This document shows, one piece after another, positions 29,098-49,722 of a stretch of DNA of 64,000 bases. The notes under the pieces are model-generated. The model saw only the letters and a program-made list of their open reading frames with translations, had not been told where the DNA came from and ran no database searches. Within the stretch, counting starts at the first letter, position 1. Every line of letters starts with the position of its first letter. The stretch is taken from NCBI GenBank assembly GCA_050246755.1, contig JBFWVL010000001.1:320001-384000 (forward strand), read 5' to 3'. This DNA is from Bacteriovoracia bacterium (lineage in GTDB: Bacteria > Bdellovibrionota > UBA1018 > CAIPTA01). The translations under genes and the position numbers were made by a program.

Positions 29098-29793
29098 ATG
29101 ATTACCATTCGTAAATCCAATGAACGCGGCCACGCCAACCACGGCTGGCTGGACTCCCACCACACCTTTTCCTTCGCGGATTACTACGATCCCCAGCATA
29201 TGGGCTATAGCGTGCTCCGCGTGATCAACGAGGATCATATCGCCGCCGGGCAAGGCTTCGGCACCCACGGCCACCGCGATATGGAAATCATCACCTACGT
29301 GATCGAAGGCTCGCTCAAGCACAAGGACAGCATGGGTAATTCTGAAGTGATCCGCCCCGGAGAAGTGCAGCGCATGAGCGCGGGCACCGGCGTGCAGCAT
29401 TCCGAGCATAGCGACCCCAGCGTGAGCACCCACCTGCTCCAAATCTGGATCCTGCCCGAGAAACTCGGCGTGGCACCGAGCTACGAGCAAAAGCAATTCG
29501 CCAACGATTTTTCCTGCAGCGATATGATTCTCGTGGCTTCCCGTTCGGGCCGCGCCAATTCAGTTACGCTAAACCAAGACGTGGACCTATACGTGGCCAA
29601 GGCCCAGGCCGAAGGCGAGAAACATTTGAAAACCTTCCCCCACCGCCACTTGTGGATTCAAGTGGTGAGCGGAGAGGTGCGCGCGGAAGGCGCCACTCTG
29701 GGAAAAGGCGACGGCGCGGCGATCACGGGCGTGGAGATGCTCGTGATCCAGTGGACGAAGGGTTCCGAGTTTCTCGTGTTTGATATGCCGTAA
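29098..29793 (+). CDS. pirin-family protein (YhhW-like)
   Basis: GWLDSHHTFSFA.YYDP, GFGTHGHRDMEI, MSAGTGVQHSE, LQIW. Confidence 0.95.
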   Translation: MITIRKSNERGHANHGWLDSHHTFSFADYYDPQHMGYSVLRVINEDHIAAGQGFGTHGHRDMEIITYVIEGSLKHKDSMGNSEVIRPGEVQRMSAGTGVQHSEHSDPSVSTHLLQIWILPEKLGVAPSYEQKQFANDFSCSDMILVASRSGRANSVTLNQDVDLYVAKAQAEGEKHLKTFPHRHLWIQVVSGEVRAEGATLGKGDGAAITGVEMLVIQWTKGSEFLVFDMP

Positions 29794-29855: not shown

Positions 29856-31226
29856 CTACCCGGCTTTTTTCGCGGCCGCGGCTTTCGCGCGCTGCTGGGC
29901 CAGTAAATGCTGGTGGTACTGCGCGAGCGTCATCCCCGCTTTTACCGCCGCCGCCTGCAAAGCTTGCATCTGCGCCGGGGTTAAATGCGCGAGCCCAGGC
30001 GGAACGGCGGCCGGTGCCGGCTTCGCGGCATGCCCCTGATTCTGGGCCGCACTCAAGGCCAACGCATGGCCCGCGGCTTCCGGTGATCCCTTCAGGGGAA
30101 TTTCTCCACGGAAAGGATTGTAACGCCCGCCGGGGAGGGCAAATTTTTCGATGGGGAAATTGAATCCGTTCACGGCGATTTCGTCGAAGAAGGTAGGAAT
30201 ATTTCCGCAGGGCTGCATCCCGCCGAGGATCTTATGGTCTTCGGCGATCCCGGTCTGCTCGAAACGGAAAATATCCTGGGTCGTATATTTTCCATGCTCG
30301 TCTACGCCAAGAACTTCGGAGATATGGGAAAGCTTACGGGAACCATCGTGGTAGCGCTTCGCCTGGATCACGATGTGCACGGCGCCGGCAATCTGCCGGC
30401 GAAGGGCGGCCAACGGAATCGTGGTATCGCCCATCATCGCGAGGGTTTCCAAGCGAACGAGGCAATCCATCGGGCTGTTACTGTGGGTGGTGCCCATCGA
30501 GCCGCCGTGGCCGGTATTCATTACGGTGATCAAATCGAGAGCCTCGGGCCCGCGCACTTCCCCCACGATGATGCGGTCGGGGCGGAGCCGCATCGCGGAG
30601 CGCACGAGATCGCGGATCGTGAGCGCTCCTTTTCCTTCGTGGTTGGCGGCCTTGGTTTCGAAACATACCACGTGCTCGGCGGTGATCTGCAATTCGGAGG
30701 CGTCTTCCACGATCATCAGGCGCTCGTCTTTGGGCATGAGGCCGCCGAGCAAGTTGAGGATGGTGGTCTTACCAGAGCCGGTACCGCCCGAGACGATGAT
30801 ATTCTTGGCCAGCGAAATGCAAAGCTTGAGGAAGTCGGCGCCGTCGGCGCTCATGGTGCCGAAGGAAATAAATTTGTCGAAAGTGATCTCGGCGGCTTTG
30901 GAGAACTTACGAATGGCCACCGTGGTGCCGGCACGGGCGGCGGGCGGCAATACCGCGTGAATACGCGAGCCATCGGGCAAGCGCGCGTCGAGGGTTGGAT
31001 TTTCTGCGTCGATCTTCCGTTTCACGAACTGCGCGATATTGCGGACCGCGGCCTGCAGGGAAGTTTCGTCATGGAACTTGGCGCCTTCCATGAGCTCGAG
31101 CTTACCTTTACGCTCCACCCAGATTTCGGATGGGCCATTGATCAGCACCTCGCTCACCGTAGGGTCGGCGAGGAAGTCTTTAATCGGAGCGAGGAAGGTC
31201 GCTATACTCTGGTCGAAAACACTCAA
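29856..31226 (-). CDS. tadA: CpaF/TadA-family pilus assembly ATPase
   Basis: DARLPDGSR, GGTGSGKTT, RPDRIIVGEVRG, MNTGH..TTH; Ala/Gln-rich C-terminal tail; TTG start with GAGGTG RBS. Confidence 0.92.
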   Translation of the reverse strand: MSVFDQSIATFLAPIKDFLADPTVSEVLINGPSEIWVERKGKLELMEGAKFHDETSLQAAVRNIAQFVKRKIDAENPTLDARLPDGSRIHAVLPPAARAGTTVAIRKFSKAAEITFDKFISFGTMSADGADFLKLCISLAKNIIVSGGTGSGKTTILNLLGGLMPKDERLMIVEDASELQITAEHVVCFETKAANHEGKGALTIRDLVRSAMRLRPDRIIVGEVRGPEALDLITVMNTGHGGSMGTTHSNSPMDCLVRLETLAMMGDTTIPLAALRRQIAGAVHIVIQAKRYHDGSRKLSHISEVLGVDEHGKYTTQDIFRFEQTGIAEDHKILGGMQPCGNIPTFFDEIAVNGFNFPIEKFALPGGRYNPFRGEIPLKGSPEAAGHALALSAAQNQGHAAKPAPAAVPPGLAHLTPAQMQALQAAAVKAGMTLAQYHQHLLAQQRAKAAAAKKAG

Positions 31227-31256
31227 CGGTCACCTCTTTGGTCGCCTGGCGCTACG

Positions 31257-31685
31257 CTAATCGCGGACAATTACTTGCCCTTCGATTTCCTGCACGGGGC
31301 AGTAAAAACGGTATTGCCCCGGCTTGGTGGGCAGAAAGCTCATCTGCTCCACGGCCTGGTTGGAAATTCCTTTGCGGAGATTGAAATCGTCCATCATGAA
31401 GCAGAGCTTGCGCGCGGAAGCGCTGGTCACGAAAAGTTTCACGGGAATATTTCGGCGCACGAAAATTTTCGCGGGCAGGTAGCCGGTGTCGGTGGCGATG
31501 ATGCCCACTTCTTGCACGCCGTGCTTATACACTTCCTCGGGCTTCACGCTTTCTTCGCGTACGGGCTGCACTTCTTGGGTGGAACCGAGGGCTTCGCGCT
31601 TTTGCGGAACGCCGGAATAATTGCTCTTCGTGGGCGCCGCGCCGGTAAGCGAAACAAATGCGAGTACGGCCAATAAAATTCTCAT
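31257..31685 (-). CDS. secreted cupredoxin-domain protein
   Basis: Signal peptide; GYLP..I.V, PGQYRFYCP; AGGAGG RBS. Confidence 0.8.
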   Translation of the reverse strand: MRILLAVLAFVSLTGAAPTKSNYSGVPQKREALGSTQEVQPVREESVKPEEVYKHGVQEVGIIATDTGYLPAKIFVRRNIPVKLFVTSASARKLCFMMDDFNLRKGISNQAVEQMSFLPTKPGQYRFYCPVQEIEGQVIVRD

Positions 31686-31779: not shown

Positions 31780-32787
31780 CTAACGGCGCTCATAGCCGCT
31801 GGAGGGAGCCCCGCCATTGCCGATCTGCGACTGGCAGTCCGCCCCGGCCATCACGGCTTCCGTTTGGATCCACTGCCCTTCACTCTCGAATTGCGCGGGC
31901 TCCTTGCGGTTGCACTGAAAAATGAAGATGTCGTCGGCGGGGCAGCCATTCATCGCGGGCACCTTTACCTGGCCGCGGCCGGCCGAAATGAAATCCACCG
32001 GATAGTAATTTCCCTGCACCACGATCTGATTCGGGCAAATATACTGATCGGGTGAATCCGGCGTAATCGGCACGGGATTGGCGGCGGCCTCCGCCTGCGC
32101 GGTCGCAAAAGTGTCGGCGGCCACGCGAGGACTCCGCGAGGAAGCAATGCTCCGCGCCGAGGCTTGCTCGGGCGTGAGGCACTCGGTATTGGCCCAAACG
32201 CCGCCACCGCGCTCGCAGGTGACATTCTGCGAAAGCTGAATGGGCGGACTAAATAAACCTACTTTTTCCCATTCGAGCGGCGCCTTGGTGGCCCCGTCGT
32301 TGAACGTAACCCTCACCTTCACGTGCATGCTCTTGGTATTTTCGCAGCGCCCGCCGGCCGCGCAAACCGGCTCCCAGCTGGCTTCCACGCGCAGCGGACA
32401 AGCGGCGCTCGGAAATCCGCGGCAGCCGAATCCATCCGCGGTCAGCCCCGAATCCAGACCGATTTGGCTGAGCGGCTGGGCCGAAGCCTCGCCCGTTTCA
32501 TAGAGTAAAAAGTTCGTTCCTTTGCCGGAACAATCGCCGAGCGCGGAGAAGAGACAAGAAAAAGAGTTTCCGTTGCGCGGCACGCTCACGCTCACTGCTT
32601 CCGGAGTGCTGAGCGCCTTCTCCGCCTGCTCACGCAGGCGATCAAACATTTCCTCCGGACGAACCGCCGCCACTTTGGGCCCCGAAGCACTCGAAGCAAT
32701 ATAATAGAGCCCGCCTATCAGGGCGCAGGCGCCTAAAGCCAGTACGGCCAGAATCGCAAAACTGCCGTTTTCACGACGAGAAGTCAT
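31780..32787 (-). CDS. Cys-rich membrane-anchored protein with a pilin-like N-terminus
   Basis: MTSRRENG/SFAILAVLALG (basic leader, Gly, hydrophobic helix); about 12 Cys. Confidence 0.75.
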   Translation of the reverse strand: MTSRRENGSFAILAVLALGACALIGGLYYIASSASGPKVAAVRPEEMFDRLREQAEKALSTPEAVSVSVPRNGNSFSCLFSALGDCSGKGTNFLLYETGEASAQPLSQIGLDSGLTADGFGCRGFPSAACPLRVEASWEPVCAAGGRCENTKSMHVKVRVTFNDGATKAPLEWEKVGLFSPPIQLSQNVTCERGGGVWANTECLTPEQASARSIASSRSPRVAADTFATAQAEAAANPVPITPDSPDQYICPNQIVVQGNYYPVDFISAGRGQVKVPAMNGCPADDIFIFQCNRKEPAQFESEGQWIQTEAVMAGADCQSQIGNGGAPSSGYERR

Positions 32788-32794
32788 GCCTAAC

Positions 32795-32822
32795 TCATCG
32801 GAAGCGTTTAAGGGAAAATTTA
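32795..32822 (-). promoter_or_regulatory. candidate sigma28 promoter (leaderless)
   Basis: TAAA-N16-TCCGATGA, then 7 nt to the ATG. Confidence 0.55.
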
Positions 32823-33395
32823 GGGTTGTTGCACTGGGAAGACGGTCTCGAAAATCCCGAACGGGCCGGGAGGCGGCTTATCGCCCGACTCTACGGGCAA
32901 CGGGATAGGAGGAATGGGGGCAATAGGACCGATAGACTCGGGATTTGCGGGAACAGCGGTATCAGGCGCTTCCACCGGAGCATCCTCATTATAGATCTTC
33001 GAAGCGTTTTGGTCGATGCAGGTGGCGAGCGAAACGAAATACTTATTGGAAACGTAGATACGGTATGGACTCAAAACATCCCGGAGGCGGCGTACCGGCG
33101 CAAAGGTGCAGGTAACCGGGTGGTGCTTGCCCGACTGCAGATCCGGGTGCCCGTTCGCGTCGTATTTAGTGTAGGTGAGCATGTCTAAATCGAGCGTGCA
33201 GGTTTTATTTTCGCAGTGAAATTTTTTGAAATCGTAGCCAATATCCCCTTCGCACCAAGTATTATTGCAAGCCTCTTGGATGCCTTCAAGCACGCGGCGC
33301 TCCTGGGCGGGCGTGAATAGAGAGCGAGTGCGGGCCGCGCCGGCTTCCGCCATCCCACCTACCGCGAGAGCAAAAAGGAAAATACTGATTCTCAT
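32820..33395 (-). CDS. secreted Cys-containing hypothetical protein with a Pro-rich tail
   Basis: Signal peptide; C.NTWCEGD motif. Confidence 0.75.
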   Translation of the reverse strand: MRISIFLFALAVGGMAEAGAARTRSLFTPAQERRVLEGIQEACNNTWCEGDIGYDFKKFHCENKTCTLDLDMLTYTKYDANGHPDLQSGKHHPVTCTFAPVRRLRDVLSPYRIYVSNKYFVSLATCIDQNASKIYNEDAPVEAPDTAVPANPESIGPIAPIPPIPLPVESGDKPPPGPFGIFETVFPVQQP

Positions 33396-33505: not shown

Positions 33506-34276
33506 CTATTTAGCGAGAAACTCCACCTTACCCAATTGATCGAACGTGGCACTCACCGTATCGCCCGCACGAAAAGCCACGGCCGCGGTGGCGCCGCCCG
33601 CGAGCACGATGGATCCGGCCGGCAAAGATTCGCCCATGGCGCCCAGTAGCTTCACGAGCTCCAGCAGCGAAAGCAGGGGATTCCCCAGAATGGCGGCCGA
33701 AGACCCCTTTTGCGCGGCCGCTCCATTTTTTTCGAGCGTGATACCGATATTTTTTAGTTCGAGTTCCCCCGGTTTTTTCCTTACCGTACCGAGCACGAAG
33801 GCCGAGGAGGAGCAGTTGTCGGCCACCACGTCGGGCAGGGCGAAATCAAAATTCTCGAAACGAGAATCAATCACTTCGATCGCCCCGCATACGCTCTCGA
33901 TCGCCGCAATGGCTTCGGCTTCGGAAGGATTGCCATGCAGCTCTTTACCCATCACGAAGGCAATCTCGGGTTCGGCCTTAGGATGAATTCTTCTTCCGAG
34001 CGTGAGCGTCGCGCCGCTCGCTATTTGCATGCGGTCGGTGAGGAAGCCGTGGATAGGGCTATCAATTCCCATTTGCTCCATCTTGGGCTTGGAGGTCATT
34101 CCCATCTTGCGGCCAACGATCCGCGCGCCGCCTTTGAGGTGAAGGGCCATGAGCAAGCGCTGCACTTCGTAGCCCTGACCGAGCGAAAAACTCGGCTCTT
34201 CCACCGTAAACTTAATTACGGACTTTCCCGTTTGCTCCGCCGCGAACAATATTCCCGCGATTTCTTGCGCCTTCAT
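33506..34276 (-). CDS. dmpH: 4-oxalocrotonate (2-oxo-3-hexenedioate) decarboxylase
   Basis: FAH family; KMGMTSKPKMEQMG, IHPKAEPEIAF, EVIDSRF, DVVADNCSS. Confidence 0.85.
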   Translation of the reverse strand: MKAQEIAGILFAAEQTGKSVIKFTVEEPSFSLGQGYEVQRLLMALHLKGGARIVGRKMGMTSKPKMEQMGIDSPIHGFLTDRMQIASGATLTLGRRIHPKAEPEIAFVMGKELHGNPSEAEAIAAIESVCGAIEVIDSRFENFDFALPDVVADNCSSSAFVLGTVRKKPGELELKNIGITLEKNGAAAQKGSSAAILGNPLLSLLELVKLLGAMGESLPAGSIVLAGGATAAVAFRAGDTVSATFDQLGKVEFLAK

Positions 34277-34277
34277 T

Positions 34278-35057
34278 CTATTCTCCAAAAAAACAGTGCA
34301 CGTTTCCGAGACCAGCGATTTCCACGTCTACCCTATCGCCCGCCTTCACCGGCATCACCGGCCCAAAGGCGCCGGAAAGAATCACTTCACCGGCTTTCAG
34401 TGCCACCCCGAATTTTCCGAGCGCATTCGCAAGCCAGGCCACCGCCAGGCAAGGGTGATCGAGGCAAGCCGCGCCGGTGCCGGTGGAAAGAATTTCCCCG
34501 TTAATTTTCAGGCTCATCTTGGCGAGGGTTAAATCCAGGGAGGAAAGCGAATGCTTTTCCGTGCCCAGCACAAAGTGCGAAGAAGAGGCGTTGTCGGCGA
34601 TCGTGTCCTGGATCTTGATTTTCCAGTCGCGCACGCGGGAATCAATGATCTCGATCGAGGGAAGAATATAGTCCGTTGCGTGGATCACATCCTGCATCGT
34701 TATGCCGGGGCCTATCAAGTCGCTCTTGAGCACGAAGGCCACCTCGCCCTCCACCCGGGGCAAAAGGAGCTTGGCGCGGGAAAGGCTTCCGCCCGAGGAA
34801 ATCTTCATGTCGGAAGTGAGGTAGCCGAAATCGGGCTCTTCCACGCCCAATTGTTTCTGCACTGCCCTAGAAGTAAGGCCGATTTTCTTCCCCACGAGGG
34901 TCAGGCCTTCTTGCTCGAGGCGGCGCTTGAGGTTAATCTCGGACACGGAGTAGGCGTTGCCGATCGTGATTCCGGGAAACTGGGCGGTGAGCGGTTCCAC
35001 CGGCGAGGCCGAGAGGCGGGCCTGAAAAAGGGCGTCAGCTAAGGAAGTAAGATTCAT
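34278..35057 (-). CDS. mhpD: 2-oxopent-4-enoate (2-keto-4-pentenoate) hydratase
   Basis: GKKIGLTS.AVQKQLGV.EPDFG, EIIDSR, DTIADNAS, AVAWLAN. Confidence 0.9.
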   Translation of the reverse strand: MNLTSLADALFQARLSASPVEPLTAQFPGITIGNAYSVSEINLKRRLEQEGLTLVGKKIGLTSRAVQKQLGVEEPDFGYLTSDMKISSGGSLSRAKLLLPRVEGEVAFVLKSDLIGPGITMQDVIHATDYILPSIEIIDSRVRDWKIKIQDTIADNASSSHFVLGTEKHSLSSLDLTLAKMSLKINGEILSTGTGAACLDHPCLAVAWLANALGKFGVALKAGEVILSGAFGPVMPVKAGDRVDVEIAGLGNVHCFFGE

Positions 35058-35107
35058 CTTCCCCCACTCTAGTGTCAGGCCAGCGTGATTTCAAGAAGGG
35101 ATACTCG

Positions 35108-35977
35108 ATGTCGAAATACGACAACTTGGAGCTGAAAGAACTGAACTATAACTCCTACCTCAAGGTGCCCGAATTGCTCGGCCTCCAAAAAGAGCTTTCC
35201 GACCCCGCCCACCACGACGAAATGTTCTTCATCATCATCCACCAGGCCGCCGAGCTCTGGTTCAAGCAAATGCGCCACGAAACGGCTGGCCTCATCGAGG
35301 ATTTCCGCGCCAATTCCGTTTCCCGGGCCTTGAAAAAATTCCGTCGCCTCGTGGGCATTATGGATCTGATGGTGAAGCAGATCAATTTGCTAAACACCCT
35401 CACACCCGTGGAGTTCGCGGGCTTCCGCGATAACCTCCGCCCCGCTTCCGGCTTCCAGTCCATCCAGTTCCGCGTGATCGAGTTCGCCTATGGCATCCGC
35501 GAAGCTTTTTTCCTGGAATTTTTCGCCAAAGAAAAATCCATGCAGAGCCAGCTGCAAGACCTACTCAAAGAACCGAGCGTGCACGATGAGTTCGTGCGCC
35601 TGCTAAGCCGCTCCGGCTTCAAGATTCCGGAGTCCCTACTGAATCGCGACGTGAGCCTGCCGTGGACCGAATCTCCCGAGCTCATCGCCACGATCAAGAC
35701 GATCTACGAGAATCCCCAGGAAAATTACCATTGGGTTCTGCTCTTCGAGACCATGCTCGACTTCGACGAAAAATTCGCCGTCTGGCGCTCCGTGCATATG
35801 CTCATGGTGGCGCGCACGATCGGCATGAAGGCCGGCACCGGCGGCAGCTCGGGCCACGCCTTCCTCGCAGGCCGCGCTGGCCTGAGATTCTTCCCCGAGC
35901 TCTGGAGCGTGCGCACGGAAGTGGGCGGCGGATACGGGAATGCCGGGGCGGCCACTCCCGGGAAATGCCCGGTTTAA
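35108..35977 (+). CDS. kynA: tryptophan 2,3-dioxygenase
   Basis: Y.SYL, HDEMFFIIIHQAAELWFKQ, FR..L.PASGFQS.QFR, GTGGSSG. Confidence 0.96.
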   Translation: MSKYDNLELKELNYNSYLKVPELLGLQKELSDPAHHDEMFFIIIHQAAELWFKQMRHETAGLIEDFRANSVSRALKKFRRLVGIMDLMVKQINLLNTLTPVEFAGFRDNLRPASGFQSIQFRVIEFAYGIREAFFLEFFAKEKSMQSQLQDLLKEPSVHDEFVRLLSRSGFKIPESLLNRDVSLPWTESPELIATIKTIYENPQENYHWVLLFETMLDFDEKFAVWRSVHMLMVARTIGMKAGTGGSSGHAFLAGRAGLRFFPELWSVRTEVGGGYGNAGAATPGKCPV

Positions 35978-35981
35978 TAGC

Positions 35982-37166
35982 ATGCGCTTCGACGTTTTCT
36001 TCTCCATCTGCCAAACTCCCGTGAACGGCTATACGCCCTCGGAACGCGTGATGTTCGAGAATTTTTTCTCCCAGGCCGAGCTCGCCGATCAACTCGGCGT
36101 GGGCACCGCCTGGGTGGCCGAAACCCACCTCTCCTGCCAGACCCAAAAAGAAAATCCCGGCGCGGTGGTGCCCCACTTCGAGGGCGAGATCGGCCTCAAT
36201 ACCGACGTGCTCCAGGTGGCGCACCGCTTATTCGCGCGCACGAAAAAAATCCATATCGGCTCCGCCATCCGCAATATCCAGTGCAATGGCGGCCCTATCG
36301 CCCACGCCGAAGCGATCCGCATGTTTCTCTCGCTCCACGCGCTCAATCCCGGCGAGAAACGCCTTCTCGATATCGGCTTCGCTTCCGGCCGCTTTCCTTT
36401 TTCCAATACGCCCTACGGCATCCGCCCCCGCAATGAACTGGAGAAAGCCGCCTGGCCCGTGCTCAAGGGAAAGATCTTCCAGGAAGCCACCGAAATTTTC
36501 CTGCGTCTCCTCAAGGGAGAGAAGCTCGCCTCGAAGGATATTTCACCTAAAATCCTCGAGCGCAAAAATTTCCGCAGTGAGGAGGAATGGGAAAAAATCG
36601 CCAAGCTCGCCGGCGGTGCCGACAAAATCGAAGTCCCCGCTTTCTGGAATTTCGATAAAGTGGGCGTGATTCCCTTCGAAGCCCCCATGGATCTGCTGAA
36701 GCTCACCATCGGTTGCCACGATCTCGAAACCCAGATCTTCGCCAATAAATTCCTGCCCTGCGGAGTATTCAACCTCTCGATCACCCCCGCTCCCCAGATC
36801 GAAGCCACGCACCAGGCGATGCAAAAAAGCTTTCACCCCGCGGGTGGCCGTTGGACCCGCGCCCATATGCCCCGCACGGTGCTCGTATTCCTGGATAAAA
36901 ATCGCGAGAAGGCCCGTGCACGTGCCCAGGGCGCGATGGAGAATTACTGGAAAGCCATCGAGGGAACCCTTGATCCCGAGAAGATTCGCAATGCCGTGGA
37001 CAATGCCCTCGTGGGCGACGCGGCCGAAATCAAGGCGGAGCTGGAAACGCGCTTCCACCGCGACGATCGCCTCATGCTCTGGTTCGATTTCAATAACCAC
37101 GACAACGAGGAAGTGCGCTCTTCCATGCGGGAATTCATGGAAAAAGTGGCGCCGAGCCTACAGTAA
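35982..37166 (+). CDS. luciferase-like (LLM-class) flavin-dependent monooxygenase
   Basis: MRFDVF, QAELADQLG..TAWVAETH, TKKIHIGSAI, RLLDIGFASG, C-terminal M..F.EKVAP; starts 4 bp after kynA. Confidence 0.85.
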   Translation: MRFDVFFSICQTPVNGYTPSERVMFENFFSQAELADQLGVGTAWVAETHLSCQTQKENPGAVVPHFEGEIGLNTDVLQVAHRLFARTKKIHIGSAIRNIQCNGGPIAHAEAIRMFLSLHALNPGEKRLLDIGFASGRFPFSNTPYGIRPRNELEKAAWPVLKGKIFQEATEIFLRLLKGEKLASKDISPKILERKNFRSEEEWEKIAKLAGGADKIEVPAFWNFDKVGVIPFEAPMDLLKLTIGCHDLETQIFANKFLPCGVFNLSITPAPQIEATHQAMQKSFHPAGGRWTRAHMPRTVLVFLDKNREKARARAQGAMENYWKAIEGTLDPEKIRNAVDNALVGDAAEIKAELETRFHRDDRLMLWFDFNNHDNEEVRSSMREFMEKVAPSLQ

Positions 37167-37456: not shown

Positions 37457-38155
37457 ATGACGAAAAATTGGATCTACTCGCTAAGTCTAGTTCTAGCTCT
37501 CACCGCAAACCTTGCTCTAGCCGGCGGCGCTGCCGTATCGGACCGCCTCAAATGCAATAAGGCGACCGAACTTCCCGTCAACGCAAGCGTAGACCGCGTG
37601 GTAGACGGCGACACCGTGATCATCCGCGTCCCCACCGGCACCTACTCGGTGCGCATGATGGGCATCGATACCCCCGAAACTCACTTCATGGGCAAGAGCC
37701 AGGGCGAATGGGGCGATAAAGCCGCCGAACTCCTCTCCGACCTACTCCCCGTAGGCACCAAGGTTCGCCTCGAGTACACCGCGGAATCCTGCGATGCGCA
37801 CGGGCGCCTGCTCGCCCACGTATTCAAAGGCAAGCTGCACACGAATGCCGAAATGGTGAAGCAAGGCCTCGCCGCCAACTATTGCGTAGCCCCCAGCTTC
37901 GAGTATTGCCGCGAAATCGGAAACCACGTGGCCAACGCCATTAAATACCGCCTGGGTATGTTCGCCGACTCCAACGCCGAGCTTCCCTATGATTTCCGCC
38001 GCCGCATTGGTGGCAACGAGCAGCGCTCTTTCGTGGGCAATCTCTCCACGAAAGAAGTTCTTACTCCCGGCCACCAAGATGACGTTCCGGTTGCCGAACG
38101 CGTATTCTTCTATCGCCAGAGCGACGTGAAGGCCCCCTACTTCATCGCGAAATAA
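37457..38155 (+). CDS. secreted thermonuclease (SNase family)
   Basis: Signal peptide; VVDGDT, VRMMGIDTPE, DAHGRLLA, N.EMV..GLA. Confidence 0.92.
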   Translation: MTKNWIYSLSLVLALTANLALAGGAAVSDRLKCNKATELPVNASVDRVVDGDTVIIRVPTGTYSVRMMGIDTPETHFMGKSQGEWGDKAAELLSDLLPVGTKVRLEYTAESCDAHGRLLAHVFKGKLHTNAEMVKQGLAANYCVAPSFEYCREIGNHVANAIKYRLGMFADSNAELPYDFRRRIGGNEQRSFVGNLSTKEVLTPGHQDDVPVAERVFFYRQSDVKAPYFIAK

Positions 38156-38172: not shown

Positions 38173-38201
38173 GCCTCTGCCTTCACGGGCAGGGGCTTTT
38201 T
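38173..38201 (+). terminator. intrinsic terminator
   Basis: GCCTCTGCC-TTCACG-GGCAGGGGC followed by TTTTT. Confidence 0.8.
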
Positions 38202-38247: not shown

Positions 38248-39279
38248 ATGAGCGACCACGCTTACTCGCAAAACCAATGGGTGCCTCTCGTGGACTACCG
38301 TCGCAATGGAGTGGCTGAATGCACCATCCACGGCTCCATTGCCTGGGTTTCGGGAACCAAGCTCGTGCACGCCTTTGGCGGGGAAGTGCTCTGCTATGGC
38401 CGCTCGATGATGAAGCCCTATATGGTGAAGGTTTTCGCCAAAGAGCTCGAGGATATGAGCTGGGAACAGAAAGCCATCTCGGTGGCCTCCCATAACGGCG
38501 ACACCGAACATATCCGCGTAGTCAGCTCCGTACTTTCCGAAAGCGAGCTCGGCCTCGTGCAAACCCCGCTCGCGCTGCCGCTGATGCAATTCGGCCAGCA
38601 GCGCCGCCGCCCGCGCCGCCTCTATCATTCCTGCTCCGGCGAACACGCCGCCATCCTCCGTGGCTGCCGCGTGAAGGGCTGGAGCCGCGTTGGCTATGTG
38701 TGGCCTCACCACGAATTTTTCCTCGCCTACCTCGCCCAGGTTCGCACCGTGCTCGGCGCCGATTGGGAACCCAAAGTGATCGCCAAAGACGGTTGCGGAT
38801 TACCCACGATTTCCATGACTACCGTGGAGATGGCGCGACTTATGGCCGATCTCGTAACGAAGAGAAACGACGATTGGGTTTGGGACGCGATGGTGAAGCA
38901 CCCGGATCTCGTGGGCGGCTTCAACCGCCTCGATTCCACGATCATGAAATCCTGCGAAGGCCGCGTGATTGCCAAAGAAGGCGCCGACGGCTTGCTCGGG
39001 CTCGCAATCGAGCACCCGGACTATCCTGATGGCCTCGGGGTAGTGATCAAGATCGCCCACGGCTGGGACATGCGCGCCACCTGGTACGTAGCCCGCTACG
39101 TGCTCGGCGTTTTGGGTTTTGATTTCCGCAATCCCTACCCGCTCGAGCGGCAAAAAGCTTTTCTGGTAGAGGATTGCATCCCGCCGGCGCTAAGGCCCAA
39201 GATGGATTCGATTCAGCCCTGGGACGACTGGGATCCGGATAGAGACCGCTGGAATTTTGATTACCGGGAGTTCACTTGA
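38248..39279 (+). CDS. asparaginase II (Rhizobium AnsA-type) family amidohydrolase, variant
   Basis: RSMMKP, ASHNG, SCSGEH (canonical NCSGKH), DGCGLP, AKEGADG. Confidence 0.85.
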   Translation: MSDHAYSQNQWVPLVDYRRNGVAECTIHGSIAWVSGTKLVHAFGGEVLCYGRSMMKPYMVKVFAKELEDMSWEQKAISVASHNGDTEHIRVVSSVLSESELGLVQTPLALPLMQFGQQRRRPRRLYHSCSGEHAAILRGCRVKGWSRVGYVWPHHEFFLAYLAQVRTVLGADWEPKVIAKDGCGLPTISMTTVEMARLMADLVTKRNDDWVWDAMVKHPDLVGGFNRLDSTIMKSCEGRVIAKEGADGLLGLAIEHPDYPDGLGVVIKIAHGWDMRATWYVARYVLGVLGFDFRNPYPLERQKAFLVEDCIPPALRPKMDSIQPWDDWDPDRDRWNFDYREFT

Positions 39280-40718
39280 AATTAGCTAACTATATCGACG
39301 GCCACGAGCAGGCCCCGCTTTCGGGAAAGTATTTGCCCAACTACGCGCCCGCTACCGGCGAGATCTATTCCGAGATCCCCGATTCCAGCGCGGCAGACGT
39401 AGACCTCGCCGTGAAGGCCGCACAGAAAATTTTCCCTTGGTGGAGCCAACGCACCCCCGAGCAAAGATCCCAGGTTTTACTCTCGATTGCCGATCGAATG
39501 GAAAAATCCGTCGACGATCTCGTGAACGCCGAGAGCCGCGACCAGGGAAAACCCGTGCACCTCGCGCGCGAAATCGAAATCCCCCGCGCCATCCAAAATT
39601 TCCGCTACTTCGCCACCAAGATTTTGCACACCGAAGAAACCGCGAGGCCCTCGCAGGCCCTGAGCTCCCTCTCCTACACCTACCGCATGCCCGTGGGCGT
39701 GGCCGGATTGATCTCGCCATGGAATCTCCCGCTCTATTTGCTCACCTGGAAAATCGCGCCGGCCATCGCCGCCGGGAACACGGTGGTTTGCAAGCCCTCC
39801 GAGCTCACGCCGATGACGGCCTACCTCATGGGCGAAATCTTCAACGAGGCGGGCGTTCCCCACGGAGTGGTGAACATGGTATTCGGCCTCGGCGTCACCG
39901 CGGGCGCCGCACTCGCCGCTCACCCCGATGTGCCACTCATTTCTTTTACCGGCGGTACCGCCACCGGCCGCAAGATCCTCGAGGCCTCGATTCCGCGTTT
40001 CAAGAAAACCAGCCTCGAGCTCGGCGGAAAAAATGCGGCGCTGGTTTTTGCCGACTGCGATCTCGCCGAAGCTGTGATCACGAGCGTGCGCTCATCCTTC
40101 CAGAACCAAGGCGAAATCTGCCTCTGCAATTCCCGCATCCTGGTGGAAGAAGGCATCTACGAGAAATTCGTGGAAAAATTCGCGCGCACGGCGAGCCTCA
40201 TCCGCGTGGGCGATCCCACCCTGAAAGAAACCCAGATGGGCCCGCTCGTGAGCAAGGAGCATAAAGAAAAAGTTCTCTCCTATATCAAGCTCGCCACCGA
40301 AGAAGGCGGCACTATTCTAGGCGGCGGCACCGTCCCCCACCTCGAAGCGCCCTTCGATCAAGGCTATTTCGTAAATCCCACGATCATCACGGGCCTCGGC
40401 CCCAACTGCCGTGTGAACCAGGAAGAGATTTTTGGCCCCGTGGCCAGTATCATTCCCTTCAAAACTGAGGAGGAAGCGATTGCGATCGCGAACGGCGTGG
40501 AATACGGACTATCCGCCTCCGTTTGGACCCGCGATATTTCTCGCGCCCACCGCGTAGCCCAGGCCCTGCACGTGGGCACCACCTGGGTAAACTCCTGGAT
40601 GGTCCGCGATCTCGGCATGCCTTTCGGCGGCATGAAGCATTCCGGCCTCGGCCGCGAAGGCGGAGATCACTCGCTGAATTTTTTCAGCGAAACGAAAACC
40701 ATCAGCGTGAAGATATGA
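39276..40718 (+). CDS. amnC: 2-aminomuconic 6-semialdehyde dehydrogenase (ALDH8A1/HMSADH-like)
   Basis: ISPWNLP, KPSE, FTGGT, LELGGKN, NQGEICLC, EEIFGP, RDL..PFGG; TTG start overlapping the upstream stop. Confidence 0.85.
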   Translation: MKLANYIDGHEQAPLSGKYLPNYAPATGEIYSEIPDSSAADVDLAVKAAQKIFPWWSQRTPEQRSQVLLSIADRMEKSVDDLVNAESRDQGKPVHLAREIEIPRAIQNFRYFATKILHTEETARPSQALSSLSYTYRMPVGVAGLISPWNLPLYLLTWKIAPAIAAGNTVVCKPSELTPMTAYLMGEIFNEAGVPHGVVNMVFGLGVTAGAALAAHPDVPLISFTGGTATGRKILEASIPRFKKTSLELGGKNAALVFADCDLAEAVITSVRSSFQNQGEICLCNSRILVEEGIYEKFVEKFARTASLIRVGDPTLKETQMGPLVSKEHKEKVLSYIKLATEEGGTILGGGTVPHLEAPFDQGYFVNPTIITGLGPNCRVNQEEIFGPVASIIPFKTEEEAIAIANGVEYGLSASVWTRDISRAHRVAQALHVGTTWVNSWMVRDLGMPFGGMKHSGLGREGGDHSLNFFSETKTISVKI

Positions 40719-41233
40719 AGCTCTTCCTGCTTTTCTTAATTCCTCTTTTTGCCTTCGCCAAGCCCGCGGCACGCAAATCCAAGGCGCCGCCCAAACGCGT
40801 AGCCACGAAGATCACTTCGGGCAAACAGGTTTGCGATATGGTGAAAAAATTCACCACCGCCGGGTTTCCCGCCCAGACCAATATCGATTTCGCCGTGGGG
40901 AAAAAGTTCGTGGCCGAAGGAAAGCTCGGCGCCATCGACAAAAATATCGGCACCTTCCATTTAGCCAATCTCTACCTGCGCGCCATCGCCAAGGGCGAGG
41001 AGGGCCTCACCTATAAAGAGGGCTGCCTAAAAATCAATTTCCCCGACCTCGATAAGGATGGGATTAAGGACCTCGAGCTCTCCGTGACGATGGAGCGACT
41101 CGACCCCAAAGCGAATCCTAAAGTGGTGAGCACCGTGAACTACGAACGCACGTTCATCTACCATCCGGAACAGAAAATCTACGAGCCCATGACCGGCTCC
41201 CCTCACCCCTTCGTGGAGCTCGTGATCAAGTGA
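40715..41233 (+). CDS. secreted hypothetical protein
   Basis: ATGA overlap with the dehydrogenase; signal peptide MKLFLLFLIPLFAFA; DLDKDG motif. Confidence 0.7.
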   Translation: MKLFLLFLIPLFAFAKPAARKSKAPPKRVATKITSGKQVCDMVKKFTTAGFPAQTNIDFAVGKKFVAEGKLGAIDKNIGTFHLANLYLRAIAKGEEGLTYKEGCLKINFPDLDKDGIKDLELSVTMERLDPKANPKVVSTVNYERTFIYHPEQKIYEPMTGSPHPFVELVIK

Positions 41234-41610
41234 AACAGGTGATCCTGATCCGCCGCGATCTCAATATGCGCCGGGGAAAAGAAATCGCGCAGGGGTCACA
41301 CGCCTCGATGGGATTTCTGATCGAGCAATTGCGGGCGCAGATGCCTTCTTCGGAGGCTTCGGTCACTCTCGACGCGGCCACGCAGGAATGGATTCAGTTC
41401 GGCATGGGAAAGATTTGCCTGCAGGTTACGAGCGAAGCGGATTTGCTTAGCTTCCACGCGAAGGCGAAGGCCGCCGGAGTGTATAGTTTTTTGGTGAGGG
41501 ATAGTGGCCGCACGGAATTTCACGGCGAACCTACCTATACCGCCTGCGCGATCGGGCCCGATACGGCCGAGAGAATCGATGCAATCACGGGTGAGCTGAA
41601 CTTGTATTGA
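41230..41610 (+). CDS. pth2: peptidyl-tRNA hydrolase, PTH2 family
   Basis: KQVILIRRDLNMRRGKEIAQGSHAS, DSGRTE, T.CAIGP, ID.ITG.L.L. Confidence 0.9.
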   Translation: MKQVILIRRDLNMRRGKEIAQGSHASMGFLIEQLRAQMPSSEASVTLDAATQEWIQFGMGKICLQVTSEADLLSFHAKAKAAGVYSFLVRDSGRTEFHGEPTYTACAIGPDTAERIDAITGELNLY

Positions 41611-41704: not shown

Positions 41705-43913
<2,209 letters not shown>

Positions 43914-43917
<4 letters not shown>

Positions 43918-44549
43918 AGATTTGGGACATCAGCCCGGTGATTTCCGAGAAGACGGCCGTATTTCCCGGCGACGTGCCTTTTTCCCGCGAAGTTTCGATG
44001 GACACGAAAAAAGGCCACCACCTCACCCTCTCGGCCATTCGTTCCACGCTGCATATCGGCGCGCACGCCGACGCCGGCAATCATTATCATAAAGAGGGAA
44101 AAGGCGTGGAGGCGCGGCCCCTCGAATCCTACCTGGGCGACTGTGAAGTGATCGCCGTAAAGCTTCCCCGTGGTGCCCGTATCGGAATCGAGCATTTGAA
44201 CGGAAGAATCCCGCTCGCCCCCCGCGTGCTCTTCAAAACAAATTCTTTTCCCGATCCCGATCAATGGAACAATGATTTCAATTCTCTCTCGCCCGAGCTG
44301 ATCGAGTTCCTCGCCGACCGCGGCGCTATGCTCGTGGGTATCGACACTCCGAGCGTAGATCCCGTGGATTCCAAAGCCCTCGAAAGCCACCAGGCGCTGC
44401 ACCGCAGAAATCTCGCCGTGCTCGAGGGAATCACGCTGGAACAGGTAACGGAAGGCGTGTACACCCTGGTCGCTTTGCCGCTGCGAATGAAAGACGCTGA
44501 CGCTTCGCCGGTTCGTGCTATCCTTATAAACAAAGAAACGTTGTTGTGA
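43914..44549 (+). CDS. kynB: kynurenine formamidase (cyclase family)
   Basis: WDISP...VFPGD, HIGAHADA..H, GIDTPSVD, LEG, DASPVRA. Confidence 0.93.
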
Positions 44550-46532: not shown

Positions 46533-46669
46533 GCGGGCGCCCCTCGGGCATGACACGTAAATAATTGAATTTATTAACTTTATTTTACCTTATCGGACCT
46601 GCCCCACCTAGCCCGCCCTCGACGCGGTGCTCGCTTCCTTCCTACACTATTTCGCCTATCGTTATCGGC

Positions 46670-48217
46670 ATGTCGAAAACCCAACAGCAGGCCTTCGCGG
46701 CCCTTGAAGCCAAACTTGCGCAGAGCGAATTTCCCGCCGGCAAAGAACGCGTGGAAAAACAGCATAAAGACGGAAAGCTTTCCGCCCGGGAACGCATCGA
46801 GCTGCTCCTCGACAAAAATTCTTTTCAGGAATTGGACCGCTTCGTTACCCACCGGTGCACGAATTTCGAGCTCGAAAAAAATACTCCGCTCGGCGACGGG
46901 GTGGTTACCGGATTCGGCAAGATCGATGGCCGTATCGTGTACGTTTATTCCCAGGATTTTTCGGTATTCGGCGGCTCGCTTTCGGGCGCGCATGCGGCCA
47001 AGATCTGCAAGCTCATGGACCTCGCCCTGAAAAACGGAGCCCCGGTGATCGGACTCAACGATTCGGGCGGCGCGCGGATTCAAGAAGGCGTGGAAGCCCT
47101 CGGCGGATATGCCGAGATTTTCTGGCGTAATGTGCAGGCATCCGGCGTGGTGCCGCAGATTTCCGTGGTGATGGGCCCCTGCGCGGGCGGCGCGGTCTAT
47201 TCTCCGGCGATCACAGATTTTATTTATATGGTGGAACGCACGAGCTTCATGTTCGTGACCGGCCCCGACGTGATCAAGACCGTGACCCACGAAGAAGTGA
47301 CGAAAGAAACCCTCGGCGGCGCGCACACCCACTCCGAAACCAGCGGCGTATCGCACTTCGTGGCCCCCGACGACGCCACCGCCCTCCGCCAGGTGAGAAA
47401 GCTCATTTCCTATTTACCCCTGAACAACGGCGATTTGCCGCCCGCGATCCCGAACGCGGAACCGAGCGACCGCGACACGAACCGCATCCTCGCCGCCCTC
47501 CCCGATACTTCGCAAAAACCCTACGACGTGAAGACGTTTATCGACGATATCGTGGACGAAGGGAGCTTCTACGAAGTGCACGCGGCCTACGCCCGCAATA
47601 TCGTGGTAGGCTTTGCCCGCATCAACGGCCGCCCGCTCGGCGTGGTGGCCAACCAGCCCATGCACTTGGCTGGCTGCCTAAATATCGATGCTTCGCGGAA
47701 GGCCGCCCGTTTCGTCCGCTTCTGCGACTCCTTCAATATACCCCTCGTTTCCCTCGTGGATGTTCCCGGCTTTCTCCCCGGCACCGACCAGGAATACGGT
47801 GGAATCATTACCCACGGCGCGAAGCTCCTCTACGCCTACGCCGAAGCCACCGTGCCAAAAATCACGGTGATCACGCGCAAGGCCTACGGTGGCGCCTACG
47901 ACGTGATGGCCTCCAAGCATATCCGCGCCGATTTTAATTTCTCTTTCCCCAATGCCGAGATCGCGGTGATGGGCCCCGAAGGCGCGATCTCCATCCTCCA
48001 CCGCGAGAAGATCGCCAAGGATCCCGCCTCGGCGCCGAGATTGGTGGAAGAATACCGCGATACCTTCGCCAACCCCTACCGCGCCGCCGGCCTCGGGTAC
48101 CTCGACGAAGTGATTCATCCCAAGGATACGCGCCGGAAAATCGCCGCCGCGCTGGAAGCTACCCGGGGAAAACGCGAAGCGCGGCCGGTTCGCAAACACG
48201 GAAATATTCCACTGTGA
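46670..48217 (+). CDS. pccB: propionyl-CoA carboxylase carboxyltransferase subunit
   Basis: [56 protein letters not shown]. Confidence 0.93.
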
Positions 48218-49722
48218 GTACAACCGTGAAGATGCCGTTCAAAAAAATTCTGATCGCGAACCGGGGCGAGATCGCCATCCGCGTGATCCGCGCCGCCAAA
48301 GAACTGGGATTGAAAACGGTGGCCGTTTATTCCGATGCCGACCGCGATTCGCCCCACGTGCTCCTCGCCCACGAGGCCGTGCCTATCGGTGCAAGCGAAG
48401 CGAAGCAAAGTTATCTCGTGCCCGAAAAAATTCTCGCCGCCGCCGCGGCCACTAAGGCCGATGCCCTGCATCCCGGATTCGGATTTCTCTCCGAAAACGC
48501 CGATTTCGCCCGCGCTTGCGCCAAGGCCGGAATTAAATTCATCGGCCCCAACCCCGACGCGATCGACCTCATGGGCGACAAGCTCCGCGCCCGCGCCGCG
48601 ATGAAGGCCGCCGGCGTGCCCATCGTGCCCGGCAGCGACGGCGCGATCGAAACCCTGGCCGAGGCGAAAAAAATCGCCAAGACGATCGGCTTCCCCGTGA
48701 TCCTCAAAGCCGCGGCCGGCGGGGGCGGCAAGGGCATGCGCGTGGCCAACTCCGACAAAGAGCTCGAGAATTTTTTCGAATCCGTGCGCAGCGAGGCCCT
48801 CAATTATTTCAACGACGGCTCGGTATTCCTCGAGCGCTACGCCAAGGATCCCCACCATATCGAAGTACAGATCATCGCCGACGAGCACGGCAACGTGGCT
48901 CACCTCTTCGAGCGCGAATGCTCCGTGCAGCGCCGCCACCAAAAAGTGATCGAGGAAGCGCCCTCTCCGTTCCTCGTGGGGCACGACGATATCCGCGAGA
49001 AATTATTTGCCGTGGCCGTTCAGGGTGCCCAGCGCATCGGCTATACCAATGCCGGCACCATGGAATTCGTGATGGACGGCGACCGGAACTTTTATTTCCT
49101 CGAGATGAATACGCGCATCCAAGTGGAGCATCCCGTAACGGAGATGATCACCGGCATTGACCTCGTAAAAGAACAGATCCTGGTGGCCGCGGGAAATAAG
49201 CTTTCCTTCGACCCCAAAGAGCTGAAGCTCAACGGCGCGGCCATCGAGTGCCGGCTCTACGCCGAAAATCCCTTCACTTTCCTCCCTTCGCCAGGCCCCG
49301 TGAAAGAGCTCGTGCTCCCGGGAGGCCCCTTCGTGCGCGTAGACGCGGCGATGCACGCCGGGCAAACCATTCCCCTCGAATACGATCCGATGATTGCGAA
49401 ACTTTGCGCCTGGGGCCGCACCCGCGGGGAATCCGTGAGCCGCATGGCCCGCGTGCTCGGCGAAACGGGCGTGGCCGGCTGCTTAACCAACCTAGCTTTC
49501 CTTCGCCGCGTGATGGAAAATAAAATTTTCCGGAGCGGAATCTATACTACCGGCTTTATCGCCCAAGAAACCGAGCAGCTCGCGAATCCGAAAGAGCTTC
49601 CGCCCGGAATCGAATCGGAAGCCGAGCTCAGGGAACTATTGGCCTTGCTCGCGAGCACCGAAGAAAAAGTTCCCGCGCAACCCGAAGCTTCGGCCTGGTG
49701 GAGGATGACTCATGTCCGATAA
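48214..49722 (+). CDS. accC: biotin carboxylase subunit
   Basis: [52 protein letters not shown]. Confidence 0.95.

Follow-up and report, generated by a model that had tools for sequence, protein, structure and literature searches.

The closest described relatives of the protein studied here are the class 3 asparaginases ReAV and ReAIV of Rhizobium etli (PF06089; PDB 7os3, 8cly, and 9g66). ReAV combines two Ser-Lys tandems with a zinc ion bound by Cys135, Lys138, Cys189, and a water molecule (PMC8602277; PMC11024299). Other reports describe the roles of the tandem residues (PMC12292245; PMC12951835), have Arg47 holding the α-carboxylate of the substrate (PMC12292245), name Ser48 as the nucleophile and report that the zinc is not catalytic, anchoring L-asparagine via its α-amino and α-carboxy groups (PMC12951835). 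Lys138 is given as 97% conserved among ReAV orthologues, and in the K138A variant kcat fell from 416 to 4.8 per second (about 99% lost) and zinc binding weakened from 3.3 to 25.6 μM (PMC11024299). Here, we analyzed a distant member of this family, encoded in a 64,000-nucleotide stretch of DNA from a Bacteriovoracia bacterium (the whole stretch is called the window below), in a cluster with a luciferase-like (LLM) flavin-dependent oxygenase and with genes for kynurenine formation and 2-aminophenol degradation. On balance, we favor the reading that the LLM protein carries out a Baeyer-Villiger oxidation of kynurenine and that the hydrolase splits the resulting β-aspartyl 2-aminophenyl ester or anilide into aspartate and 2-aminophenol.

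The hydrolase has the class 3 asparaginase fold and keeps its catalytic residues

Profile, fold, and catalytic residues all place the hydrolase in PF06089. It matched the Pfam model (Asparaginase_II) over residues 15-293 with an E value of 4.8e-49 and 167.5 bits (cut-off 25); a scan against NCBIfam matched no model. The best sequence matches among solved structures were ReAIV (8cly, E 1.3e-15) and ReAV (7os3, E 1.6e-11), and the phmmer alignment with ReAIV placed LHNNCSGKHAGF opposite LYHSCSGEHAAI of the query. An AlphaFold (AF2) model made from 79 sequences had a mean predicted local distance difference test score (pLDDT) of 93.9. Comparison of a model with ReAV had been proposed in an initial annotation of this DNA, and it revealed the same fold: Foldseek returned ReAV and ReAIV at E values of 1.6e-19 to 3.1e-18 (template modeling score 0.73-0.77, 21-24% identity), followed by β-lactamases and NylB at E about 2e-3. 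The fold of kynureninase, a class V aminotransferase dependent on pyridoxal phosphate (PLP; TIGR01814), is a different one. The gene and the motifs that could be matched to ReAV are as follows.

38248..39279 (+): hydrolase of PF06089 with the class 3 asparaginase fold, 343 amino acids, ATG start; from the open reading frame (ORF) list, Pfam, the AF2 model, and Foldseek
38401..38418 (+): RSMMKP, residues 52-57 (R52, S53, K56), equivalent to ReAV Arg47, Ser48 (nucleophile), and Lys51 in the 79-sequence alignment
38485..38499 (+): ASHNG (ASH, residues 80-82; S81), the counterpart of Ser80 in the second Ser-Lys tandem of ReAV; S81 is invariant
38626..38646 (+): HSCSGEH, residues 127-133 (C129, E132, H133), aligned with ReAV Asn134-Cys135-x-x-Lys138-His139; Glu replaces the zinc lysine
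38785..38799 (+): KDGCG, residues 180-184 (D181, C183), equivalent to ReAV Asp187 and Cys189; invariant in the 79-sequence alignment
38971..38991 (+): AKEGADG, residues 242-248 (K243, equivalent to ReAV Lys263); E244 and D247 are common to all kynurenine-linked relatives, the canonical form being AKVGAEG
39217..39264 (+): Trp/Asp C-terminal tail PWDDWDPDRDRWNFDY, residues 324-339, conserved in the best homologues; model pLDDT 85-91

Both ReAV tandems (Ser48-Lys51 and Ser80-Lys263) are thus kept, along with Arg47, His139, Tyr156, Asp187, and the two zinc cysteines. All of the query residues R52, S53, K56, S81, C129, H133, Y150, D181, C183, and K243 were invariant or nearly so among the 79 sequences, with S53, K56, S81, K243, D181, Y150, C129, and C183 strictly invariant and R52 nearly so. 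Because these ReAV-equivalent residues are kept, the machinery that positions an α-amino acid and attacks its β-carbonyl is intact, and conservation of the nucleophile, the Ser-Lys tandems, the carboxylate clamp, and the zinc-site residues leads us to expect an aspartyl-type substrate. The strict Cys/Lys/Cys zinc triad of ReAV is not preserved, since C129 and C183 are kept and position 132 is Glu.

The protein nevertheless differs from ReAV and ReAIV in several respects besides the low identity: the zinc lysine is Glu (Lys, His, or Val in orthologues), it has an Arg-rich loop (residues 114-124), an insertion (residues 256-260), many conserved Trp residues, and the Trp/Asp tail, its clade is partnered with the LLM oxygenase and kynurenine/aminophenol genes, and its predicted substrate is an N4-aryl asparagine or a β-aspartyl aryl ester, not asparagine. 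The same genome encodes a second PF06089 protein (G000 C6:129678-130556, 338 bits) with the canonical motifs LHNNCSGKHAG, IDGCGIP, and AKVGAEG. With this canonical paralogue elsewhere, a score of only 167 bits for the protein itself, and a clade of its own that is conserved across phyla, the hydrolase appears by sequence comparison not to be the ordinary asparaginase of the cell.

The gene cluster and the reaction proposed for the hydrolase

The pathway genes recognized around the hydrolase gene are listed below.

33506-34288 (-): 2-oxo-3-hexenedioate decarboxylase (TIGR03218 E 1.4e-72, below cut-off)
34278-35057 (-): 2-oxopent-4-enoate hydratase (TIGR03220 E 1.1e-96, below cut-off)
35072..35977 (+): tryptophan 2,3-dioxygenase (TDO; PF03301 E 1.7e-52; TIGR03036 E 9.6e-82, below cut-off)
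35982..37166 (+): LLM flavin-dependent oxygenase (PF00296 E 9.6e-8; fold search)
39276..40718 (+): 2-aminomuconate 6-semialdehyde dehydrogenase (ALDH; PDB 4npi E 7e-137); its TTG start overlaps the hydrolase stop by 4 bases (TTGA)
41738..42646 (+): 2-aminophenol 1,6-dioxygenase β subunit (AmnB-like; PDB 3vsg_B E 1e-123, 8ihg_A E 8.2e-123)
42412..43917 (+): AmnA-like α subunit joined in one protein to a RidA-type 2-aminomuconate deaminase (7txy_A E 1.3e-57 over residues 76-345; 6izh E 6.8e-23 over residues 373-499); translation probably begins near 42640
43914..44549 (+): kynurenine (aryl)formamidase, KynB type (PF04199 E 1e-15; TIGR03035 E 3.4e-61)

The downstream genes closely match those of the 2-aminophenol meta-cleavage pathway (amn/cnb/nbz; 3vsg, 8ihg, 7txy). 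In the 2-aminophenol pathways known to us, the source is nitrobenzene or 2-aminophenol itself and the clusters hold neither such a hydrolase nor an LLM gene, whereas 2-aminophenol would here come from tryptophan. Given the matches to AmnB (E 1e-123), AmnA (1.3e-57), the semialdehyde dehydrogenase (7e-137), and the deaminase (6.8e-23), some reaction must therefore convert kynurenine to 2-aminophenol. Judged from these annotations, the cluster would make kynurenine and consume 2-aminophenol, with only the LLM protein and the asparaginase homologue left to connect the two.

Baeyer-Villiger insertion followed by hydrolysis would be the most economical chemistry leading from kynurenine (Ar-CO-CH2-CH(NH2)-COOH) to 2-aminophenol. 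In Baeyer-Villiger reactions the aryl group migrates preferentially, and a free ortho-amine readily takes up an acyl group (O-to-N shift). In the proposed route, TDO and the KynB formamidase would produce L-kynurenine, and the LLM enzyme would insert an oxygen atom between the aryl ring and the ketone carbon, giving the 2-aminophenyl ester of the aspartate β-carboxyl group. The acyl group of this ester could then shift from the oxygen to the ortho amine to give N4-(2-hydroxyphenyl)-L-asparagine. The hydrolase would bind the α-amino-acid end as ReAV binds asparagine, through Arg52 and the metal site, and attack of Ser53 on the β-carbonyl would release L-aspartate and 2-aminophenol. The latter would be degraded by the AmnBA-like dioxygenase, the aminomuconate-semialdehyde dehydrogenase, the RidA deaminase, the decarboxylase, and the hydratase. 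By analogy, an N4-substituted asparagine would be a natural substrate for a descendant of asparaginases, and most likely the hydrolase does not hydrolyze asparagine physiologically, the gene context arguing against it. The initial annotation had inferred a neofunctionalized β-aspartyl-aryl amidase/esterase. Gene context makes a neofunctionalized hydrolase of a β-aspartyl-aryl compound in a kynA/kynB/amnAB cluster very probable, and the annotation's candidate N4-(2-hydroxyphenyl)Asn is the substrate that we also arrive at.

Parts of this scheme have counterparts elsewhere. Glycosylasparaginase and the plant-type (class 2) asparaginases hydrolyze N4-substituted asparagine or β-aspartyl peptides and so likewise cleave a β-aspartyl amide with a bulky N4 substituent, although they have an N-terminal nucleophile hydrolase fold with a Thr nucleophile and no sequence relation to the hydrolase. 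Pseudomonas fluorescens ACB reportedly degrades an aryl ketone with a Baeyer-Villiger monooxygenase and an esterase; there, 4-hydroxyacetophenone monooxygenase and 4-hydroxyphenyl acetate esterase follow the same logic, from aryl ketone to ester to phenol plus acid and on to ring cleavage. The ACB oxygenase is of the FAD/NADPH-dependent type I, whereas the LLM protein is luciferase-like and of the two-component type, and the ACB esterase is an α/β-hydrolase, whereas the hydrolase here has an asparaginase/β-lactamase-like fold and would act on an amino-acid substrate. A search of the full-text literature, with subscription-only papers outside its scope, found no description of a route from kynurenine to aspartate and 2-aminophenol.

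Co-occurrence with the oxygenase and exclusion of kynureninase

In 20 loci from other species, ALDH lay directly downstream of the hydrolase gene in 14 and the LLM gene upstream in 10, and several of the remaining loci end at contig ends. Nine loci from other Bdellovibrionota families hold the same genes in a different order (LLM-ALDH-AmnB-AmnA-hydrolase). Five loci (Sericytochromatia, Cyanobacteriota, and one of Acidobacteriota) have unrelated genes next to the hydrolase gene; an LLM orthologue with 63-66% identity is encoded elsewhere in four of these five genomes, and AmnB was found at 72-78% identity in three of the four tested.

We then turned to 301 genomes sampled evenly from the window's phylum, of which 28 were counted as carriers of the hydrolase (E≤1e-60). 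All 28 carriers had an LLM orthologue (at least 48% identity) and TDO, and 26 had AmnB, the 2-aminophenol dioxygenase. Kynureninase (TIGR01814) was found in none of the carriers, compared to 72 of the 273 other genomes, and in none of the 47 genomes with an LLM protein of this type. In families f17, f20, f24, and f30, LLM genomes and kynureninase genomes are both present and never overlap. The 19 LLM genomes outside the carrier set comprise G237 and G270, with a close LLM protein, and 17 genomes of f17 and f27, with LLM proteins of 35-42% identity. Among 151 Acidobacteriota genomes, the hydrolase was present in seven and the LLM protein in six, all six within the seven, and kynureninase above the family cut-off was found in none of the five Acidobacteriota carriers tested. 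In one Acidobacteriota genome (G375:C32:80605-81702), where the hydrolase is kept, the LLM gene is split into two overlapping parts (residues 2-193 and 214-391), either by a frameshift or perhaps through an error of assembly. Kynureninase was not found in the genome of the window itself (95.7% complete); PF06052 (3-hydroxyanthranilate dioxygenase) had no match there either, which is uninformative, as the control matched in no genome.

The hydrolase is predicted to stand in for kynureninase (KynU), taking the amino-acid side chain off the kynurenine ring, and the two are mutually exclusive in the phylum genomes searched. Kynureninase is unrelated to it in fold and chemistry and yields alanine and anthranilate; the hydrolase would need prior oxygenation of its substrate, and its route would give aspartate and 2-aminophenol. 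The absence of kynureninase from the 28 carriers would also be expected if the hydrolase itself cleaved kynurenine without PLP into anthranilate and alanine, as the initial annotation had considered, with the LLM protein then oxidatively decarboxylating anthranilate to 2-aminophenol, a scheme in which the constant oxygenase partner of the hydrolase would have a task. Serine attack on the aryl ketone would, however, expel an unstabilized carbanion at the alanine β-carbon, the very step for which kynureninase needs PLP. The C-C hydrolysis taken by itself would moreover leave the oxygenase without a role, and its product would be alanine, yet the hydrolase keeps the full apparatus for a four-carbon aspartyl substrate. 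We know of no decarboxylating hydroxylation by an LLM enzyme, and we consider this scheme hardly credible.

Co-occurrence also bears on the idea that the protein is an ordinary L-asparaginase, or a general nitrogen-salvage amidase, that merely travels with the cluster. Such a role would fit the five loci with unrelated contexts and the presence of every ReAV residue essential for asparagine hydrolysis except Lys138. Yet it is precisely K138A that costs ReAV about 99% of its kcat (PMC11024299), the genome already holds a canonical paralogue, and the hydrolase keeps 65-86% identity across phyla. The association with the LLM protein is strict (28 of 28 in the phylum and 6 of 7 in Acidobacteriota), the gene set survives reordering, and relatives are fused to KynB (see below). 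An ordinary asparaginase therefore appears very improbable.

Minimal modules and KynB fusions

In the closed genome G110 (2.2 Mb, 99% complete), the LLM and hydrolase genes are adjacent and TDO is present, and AmnB was not found. A distant pair in G213 has the order LLM-hydrolase-KynB-TDO, and AmnB was not found in that genome either. Since the LLM-hydrolase pair occurs in both with TDO and without AmnB, it forms a unit of its own that is tied to kynurenine formation and that, judged from gene content, would be independent of ring cleavage. We lean toward regarding the hydrolase as one half of a two-enzyme module that replaces kynureninase.

These two genomes weigh on a different order of events, in which the LLM protein is a kynurenine 3-hydroxylase, AmnBA opens the ring of 3-hydroxykynurenine, and the hydrolase cleaves a C-C bond of the fission product to give aspartate and 2-aminomuconate or its semialdehyde. 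This would also account for an aspartyl-binding hydrolase, the absent kynureninase, and the amn genes; 3-hydroxykynurenine is itself a 2-aminophenol, the LLM fold permits hydroxylation, and the hydrolase gene comes last, after amnBA, in the nine reordered loci. A pair without AmnB in G110 and G213 does not fit it, and AmnB matches solved 2-aminophenol dioxygenases (E about 1e-123), whose known substrates are, to our knowledge, small aminophenols. Nor do we know of C-C hydrolysis by the class 3 asparaginase fold. We regard the 3-hydroxylase scheme as quite improbable.

In genomes of f17 and f27, a PF06089 domain with 27-34% identity to the hydrolase accompanies an LLM protein of 35-38% identity in an amn/TDO cluster, the two being either neighbors or a few kb apart. 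The cluster order in the five of 17 genomes retrieved was AmnB-AmnA-ALDH-hydratase-decarboxylase-LLM, next to the PF06089 domain. In three loci with a complete ORF this domain is fused to a KynB formamidase, and Pfam confirmed the fusion (PF06089 plus PF04199) in both ORFs scanned. Fusion genes lie at these positions:

L043:14134-15729: PF06089-KynB fusion
L047:14906-16522: PF06089-KynB fusion

Four database representatives (P0129, P0238, P0246, and P0254) have the same architecture; the fusion proteins are 498-540 amino acids long and fall into two separate branches of the family, one with P0129 and the other with P0238, P0246, P0254, L043, and L047. Most of them read C-F-S-K-H in place of C-S-G-K-H, and P0129 has PCSGKHS.

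Fusions often join consecutive steps, which raises the question of where KynB acts. If the LLM protein oxidized N-formylkynurenine, the hydrolase would cleave a β-aspartyl 2-formamidophenyl ester and KynB would deformylate 2-formamidophenol to 2-aminophenol. Such an ester would be stable, as it cannot undergo the O-to-N shift, and KynB acting last would suit both the fusions in two branches and the position of kynB as the last cluster gene in the window, after the amn genes. The E value of 3.4e-61 of KynB to the arylformamidase model TIGR03035 fits its usual substrate instead, and an amide-hydrolase ancestor would suit an anilide more than an ester. The computed results do not separate the two orders; we consider oxidation of the formylated compound rather unlikely, if clearly less so than the 3-hydroxylase scheme, and retain kynurenine as the preferred substrate of the oxygenase.

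The oxygenase partner and points against the proposed reaction

The LLM gene lies in an ORF of 408 amino acids, of which M15 is the probable start, as orthologues begin M.FD..FSICQT. Sequence search of the PDB gave no match at E≤1, and the protein was placed by fold search only. With a model of pLDDT 91.1, Foldseek returned RslO1 as the best match, along with luciferases, a polyketide synthase OX domain, and, at rank 26, 3,6-diketocamphane monooxygenase. The model thus points to the bacterial-luciferase fold, which includes type II Baeyer-Villiger enzymes and polyketide synthase OX domains, and this predicted fold allows, without proving, nucleophilic peroxyflavin chemistry on a carbonyl. A complex prediction for the LLM protein and the hydrolase scored 0.00, which speaks neither for nor against binding.

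Several points weigh against Baeyer-Villiger oxidation of kynurenine followed by aspartyl hydrolysis. The substrate is deduced entirely from gene context, and the LLM fold does not separate Baeyer-Villiger oxidation from hydroxylation or other chemistry, its best structural match being RslO1 and the diketocamphane enzyme only the 26th. A flavin reductase was not found in the cluster, nor a PF01613 protein in the genome. The five hydrolase loci with unrelated neighbors count here too, as do the Acidobacteriota genome G361, which has the hydrolase without a detectable LLM protein, and the very large genome G005, which holds kynureninase as well. Because related genomes are not independent of one another, the statistical weight of the co-occurrence is less than the counts suggest, and they are to be read as a pattern rather than as a statistical test. 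The KynB fusion, if it joins consecutive steps, better fits a formamidase acting after the hydrolase. Finally, known class 3 enzymes are reported to have no glutaminase, β-aspartyl peptidase, urease, or lactamase activity (PMC13451416), and the predicted activity would therefore be unprecedented for the fold.

A tail-defined clade with exchanged metal-site residues

We found 1729 homologues of the hydrolase at E≤1e-3, the best 120 of which (65-86% identity) came from Bdellovibrionota, Acidobacteriota, Thermoanaerobaculia, Sericytochromatia, and Planctomycetota. The Trp/Asp tail (W-D-x-W-D-P-D-x-D-x-W, a feature of this tight subclade only) was present in all 120, in 112 by pattern and in 8 as near variants; it was absent from all 86 more distant full-length representatives (the family clustered at 50%). 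In a FastTree phylogeny of 154 family members, a quick tree with long branches in which only the starred groupings are trustworthy, all tail-bearing proteins formed one clade (76 rows, support 98), and the canonical NCSGKH proteins, including the second copy of the window's genome, formed a separate clade of 35 rows.

The metal motif varied within the tail clade. Among the best 120 homologues it read CCSGEH in 29, PCSGKH in 26, TCSGEH in 24, PCSGEH in 21, SCSGEH in 9, PCAGKH in 6, and SCSGKH in 2, with PCSGEY, GCSGEH, and NSSGVH once each. In the window's phylum, orthologues belonging to other families had NNSSGHH and, at the second cysteine, RDGDGLP, so that the triad changes from Cys/Glu/Cys to Ser/His/Asp, and retained RSMMKP, AKEGADG, and the tail. 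In this branch, the adjacent His132 and His133 might still hold a metal together with Asp183. The Ser/His/Asp forms were basal in the tail clade, the Glu forms made up the majority, and the Lys forms were one nested clade of 15 rows. Residue 132 was Glu, Lys, His, or Val, with at least three changes among 72 tail-bearing rows. One tail-bearing protein nested among the Glu forms, P0107, reads NNSSGVH, with Val at 132 and an apparent independent loss of the first cysteine.

A definition of the clade by the Lys-to-Glu change was ruled out, as Cys/Glu/Cys, Cys/Lys/Cys, and Ser/His/Asp triads occur within one orthologous clade. The Lys-state proteins were likewise rejected as a separate, ordinary group, both by their nesting among Glu-state proteins and by the Lys-state locus L038, where the gene belongs to the same LLM-hydrolase-ALDH-AmnB cluster. 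In ReAV, zinc holds the amino-acid end of the substrate and not the leaving group, and a change at residue 132 therefore says little about the aryl part.

In the 86 representatives, NC[ST]GKH was found in 36 and AKEGA[DE]G in 47; 33 canonical NC..K proteins lacked the latter. Glu at the motif position occurred in 6 of the 47 AKEGADG-type proteins and in none of the 33 canonical ones. AKEGA[DE]G is common to the query, the Ser/His/Asp and Cys/Lys/Cys orthologues, L035 (AKEGAEG), and the KynB-fused proteins.

The initial annotation had read RSxxKP, ASH, DGC, and KxGADG as retained and HSCSGEH as standing for NCSGKH, and all of these are in the ORF; the Cys/Lys/Cys zinc site beside the Ser-Lys pairs that it gave as established for R. 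etli class 3 enzymes agrees with the published reports (PMC8602277; PMC11024299). Its view of NCSGKH as the family hallmark holds for the canonical clade and does not extend to the family at large. The tail that it called unusual is there, as a shared feature of the best homologues rather than a peculiarity of one protein. The phylogeny that it called for did yield a well-supported clade linked to LLM, kyn, and amn genes, one defined by the tail and not by SCSGEH, which, given the exchanges at residue 132 and the Ser/His/Asp branch, does not mark a new function.

Comparison of 70 tail-bearing with 35 canonical proteins gave 152 of 343 positions conserved to at least 90% in the former. Specific to the clade were the Arg-rich loop Q114-R124, N83, E244, D247, the insertion H256-P260, H271 (Asp in canonical proteins), Trp 11, 33, 173, 210, 212, 273, 279, 328, and 335, and the tail. 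As guesses, these features could serve as an aryl pocket, a dimer contact, or a docking site for a partner.

More broadly, and with what we put slightly below an even chance, about half of PF06089 (the AKEGADG-type clades) might not be asparaginases and might instead provide the hydrolase of a widespread tryptophan pathway that needs no kynureninase, with LLM Baeyer-Villiger oxidation of kynurenine or N-formylkynurenine and release of aspartate and 2-aminophenol by the hydrolase, in which metal ligands were swapped several times (Cys/Lys/Cys, Cys/Glu/Cys, Ser/His/Asp) without change of function and the tail, as a partner-docking element, takes the place of the fused KynB. If the proposed reaction is true, the hydrolase supplies the missing step in a route, not yet described, by which environmental bacteria of several phyla would channel tryptophan into central metabolism, bypassing kynurenine 3-monooxygenase, kynureninase, 3-hydroxyanthranilate dioxygenase, and ACMSD and yielding aspartate directly. 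It would be the first second activity for the class 3 asparaginase fold, so far studied only as an asparaginase (a leukemia drug candidate), and a large share of the genes now annotated "asparaginase" would have to be relabeled. The clade would then offer a naturally occurring series of variants at the metal site of one orthologous enzyme, and an amino-acid Baeyer-Villiger reaction would be added to the tools of biocatalysis.

Further genes in and around the cluster

Four further features lie between the pathway genes:

37457-38155 (+): staphylococcal-nuclease-like gene with a hydrophobic N terminus (probably secreted), inserted between the LLM and hydrolase genes
38173..38196 (+): strong terminator-like hairpin 3' of the nuclease gene, 52 bases upstream of the hydrolase ATG (10 pairs, 7 of them G-C, then a T run)
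40715-41233 (+): 172-amino-acid protein that matched no family and begins like a signal peptide, between ALDH and amnB
41230-41610 (+): PTH2 peptidyl-tRNA hydrolase, between ALDH and amnB (PF01981 E 3.3e-29)

The nuclease gene was found at the same place in L002, L003, and L005 (51-60% identity) and not in more distant clusters, and it appears to be an insertion particular to one lineage, dividing the operon. The two small genes between ALDH and amnB have no obvious link to the pathway. The RidA half is missing from AmnA in the clusters that have the Ser/His/Asp type of hydrolase (L031-L042).

Three unannotated ORFs near the decarboxylase gene, at 31780-32787 (-, 335 amino acids), 32820-33395 (-, 191 amino acids), and 30234-31676 (+, 480 amino acids), had no Pfam, NCBIfam, or PDB match and could include an unrecognized pathway component, e.g., a flavin reductase or a transporter. 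The 335- and 480-amino-acid ORFs recur in L002 (42% and 37% identity). Upstream of the cluster lies a pirin/quercetinase-like cupin gene (29098-29793, +), and downstream an acyl-CoA carboxylase pair (carboxyltransferase and biotin carboxylase; 46565-49722, +) that adjoins the cluster in L004 and L005 too.

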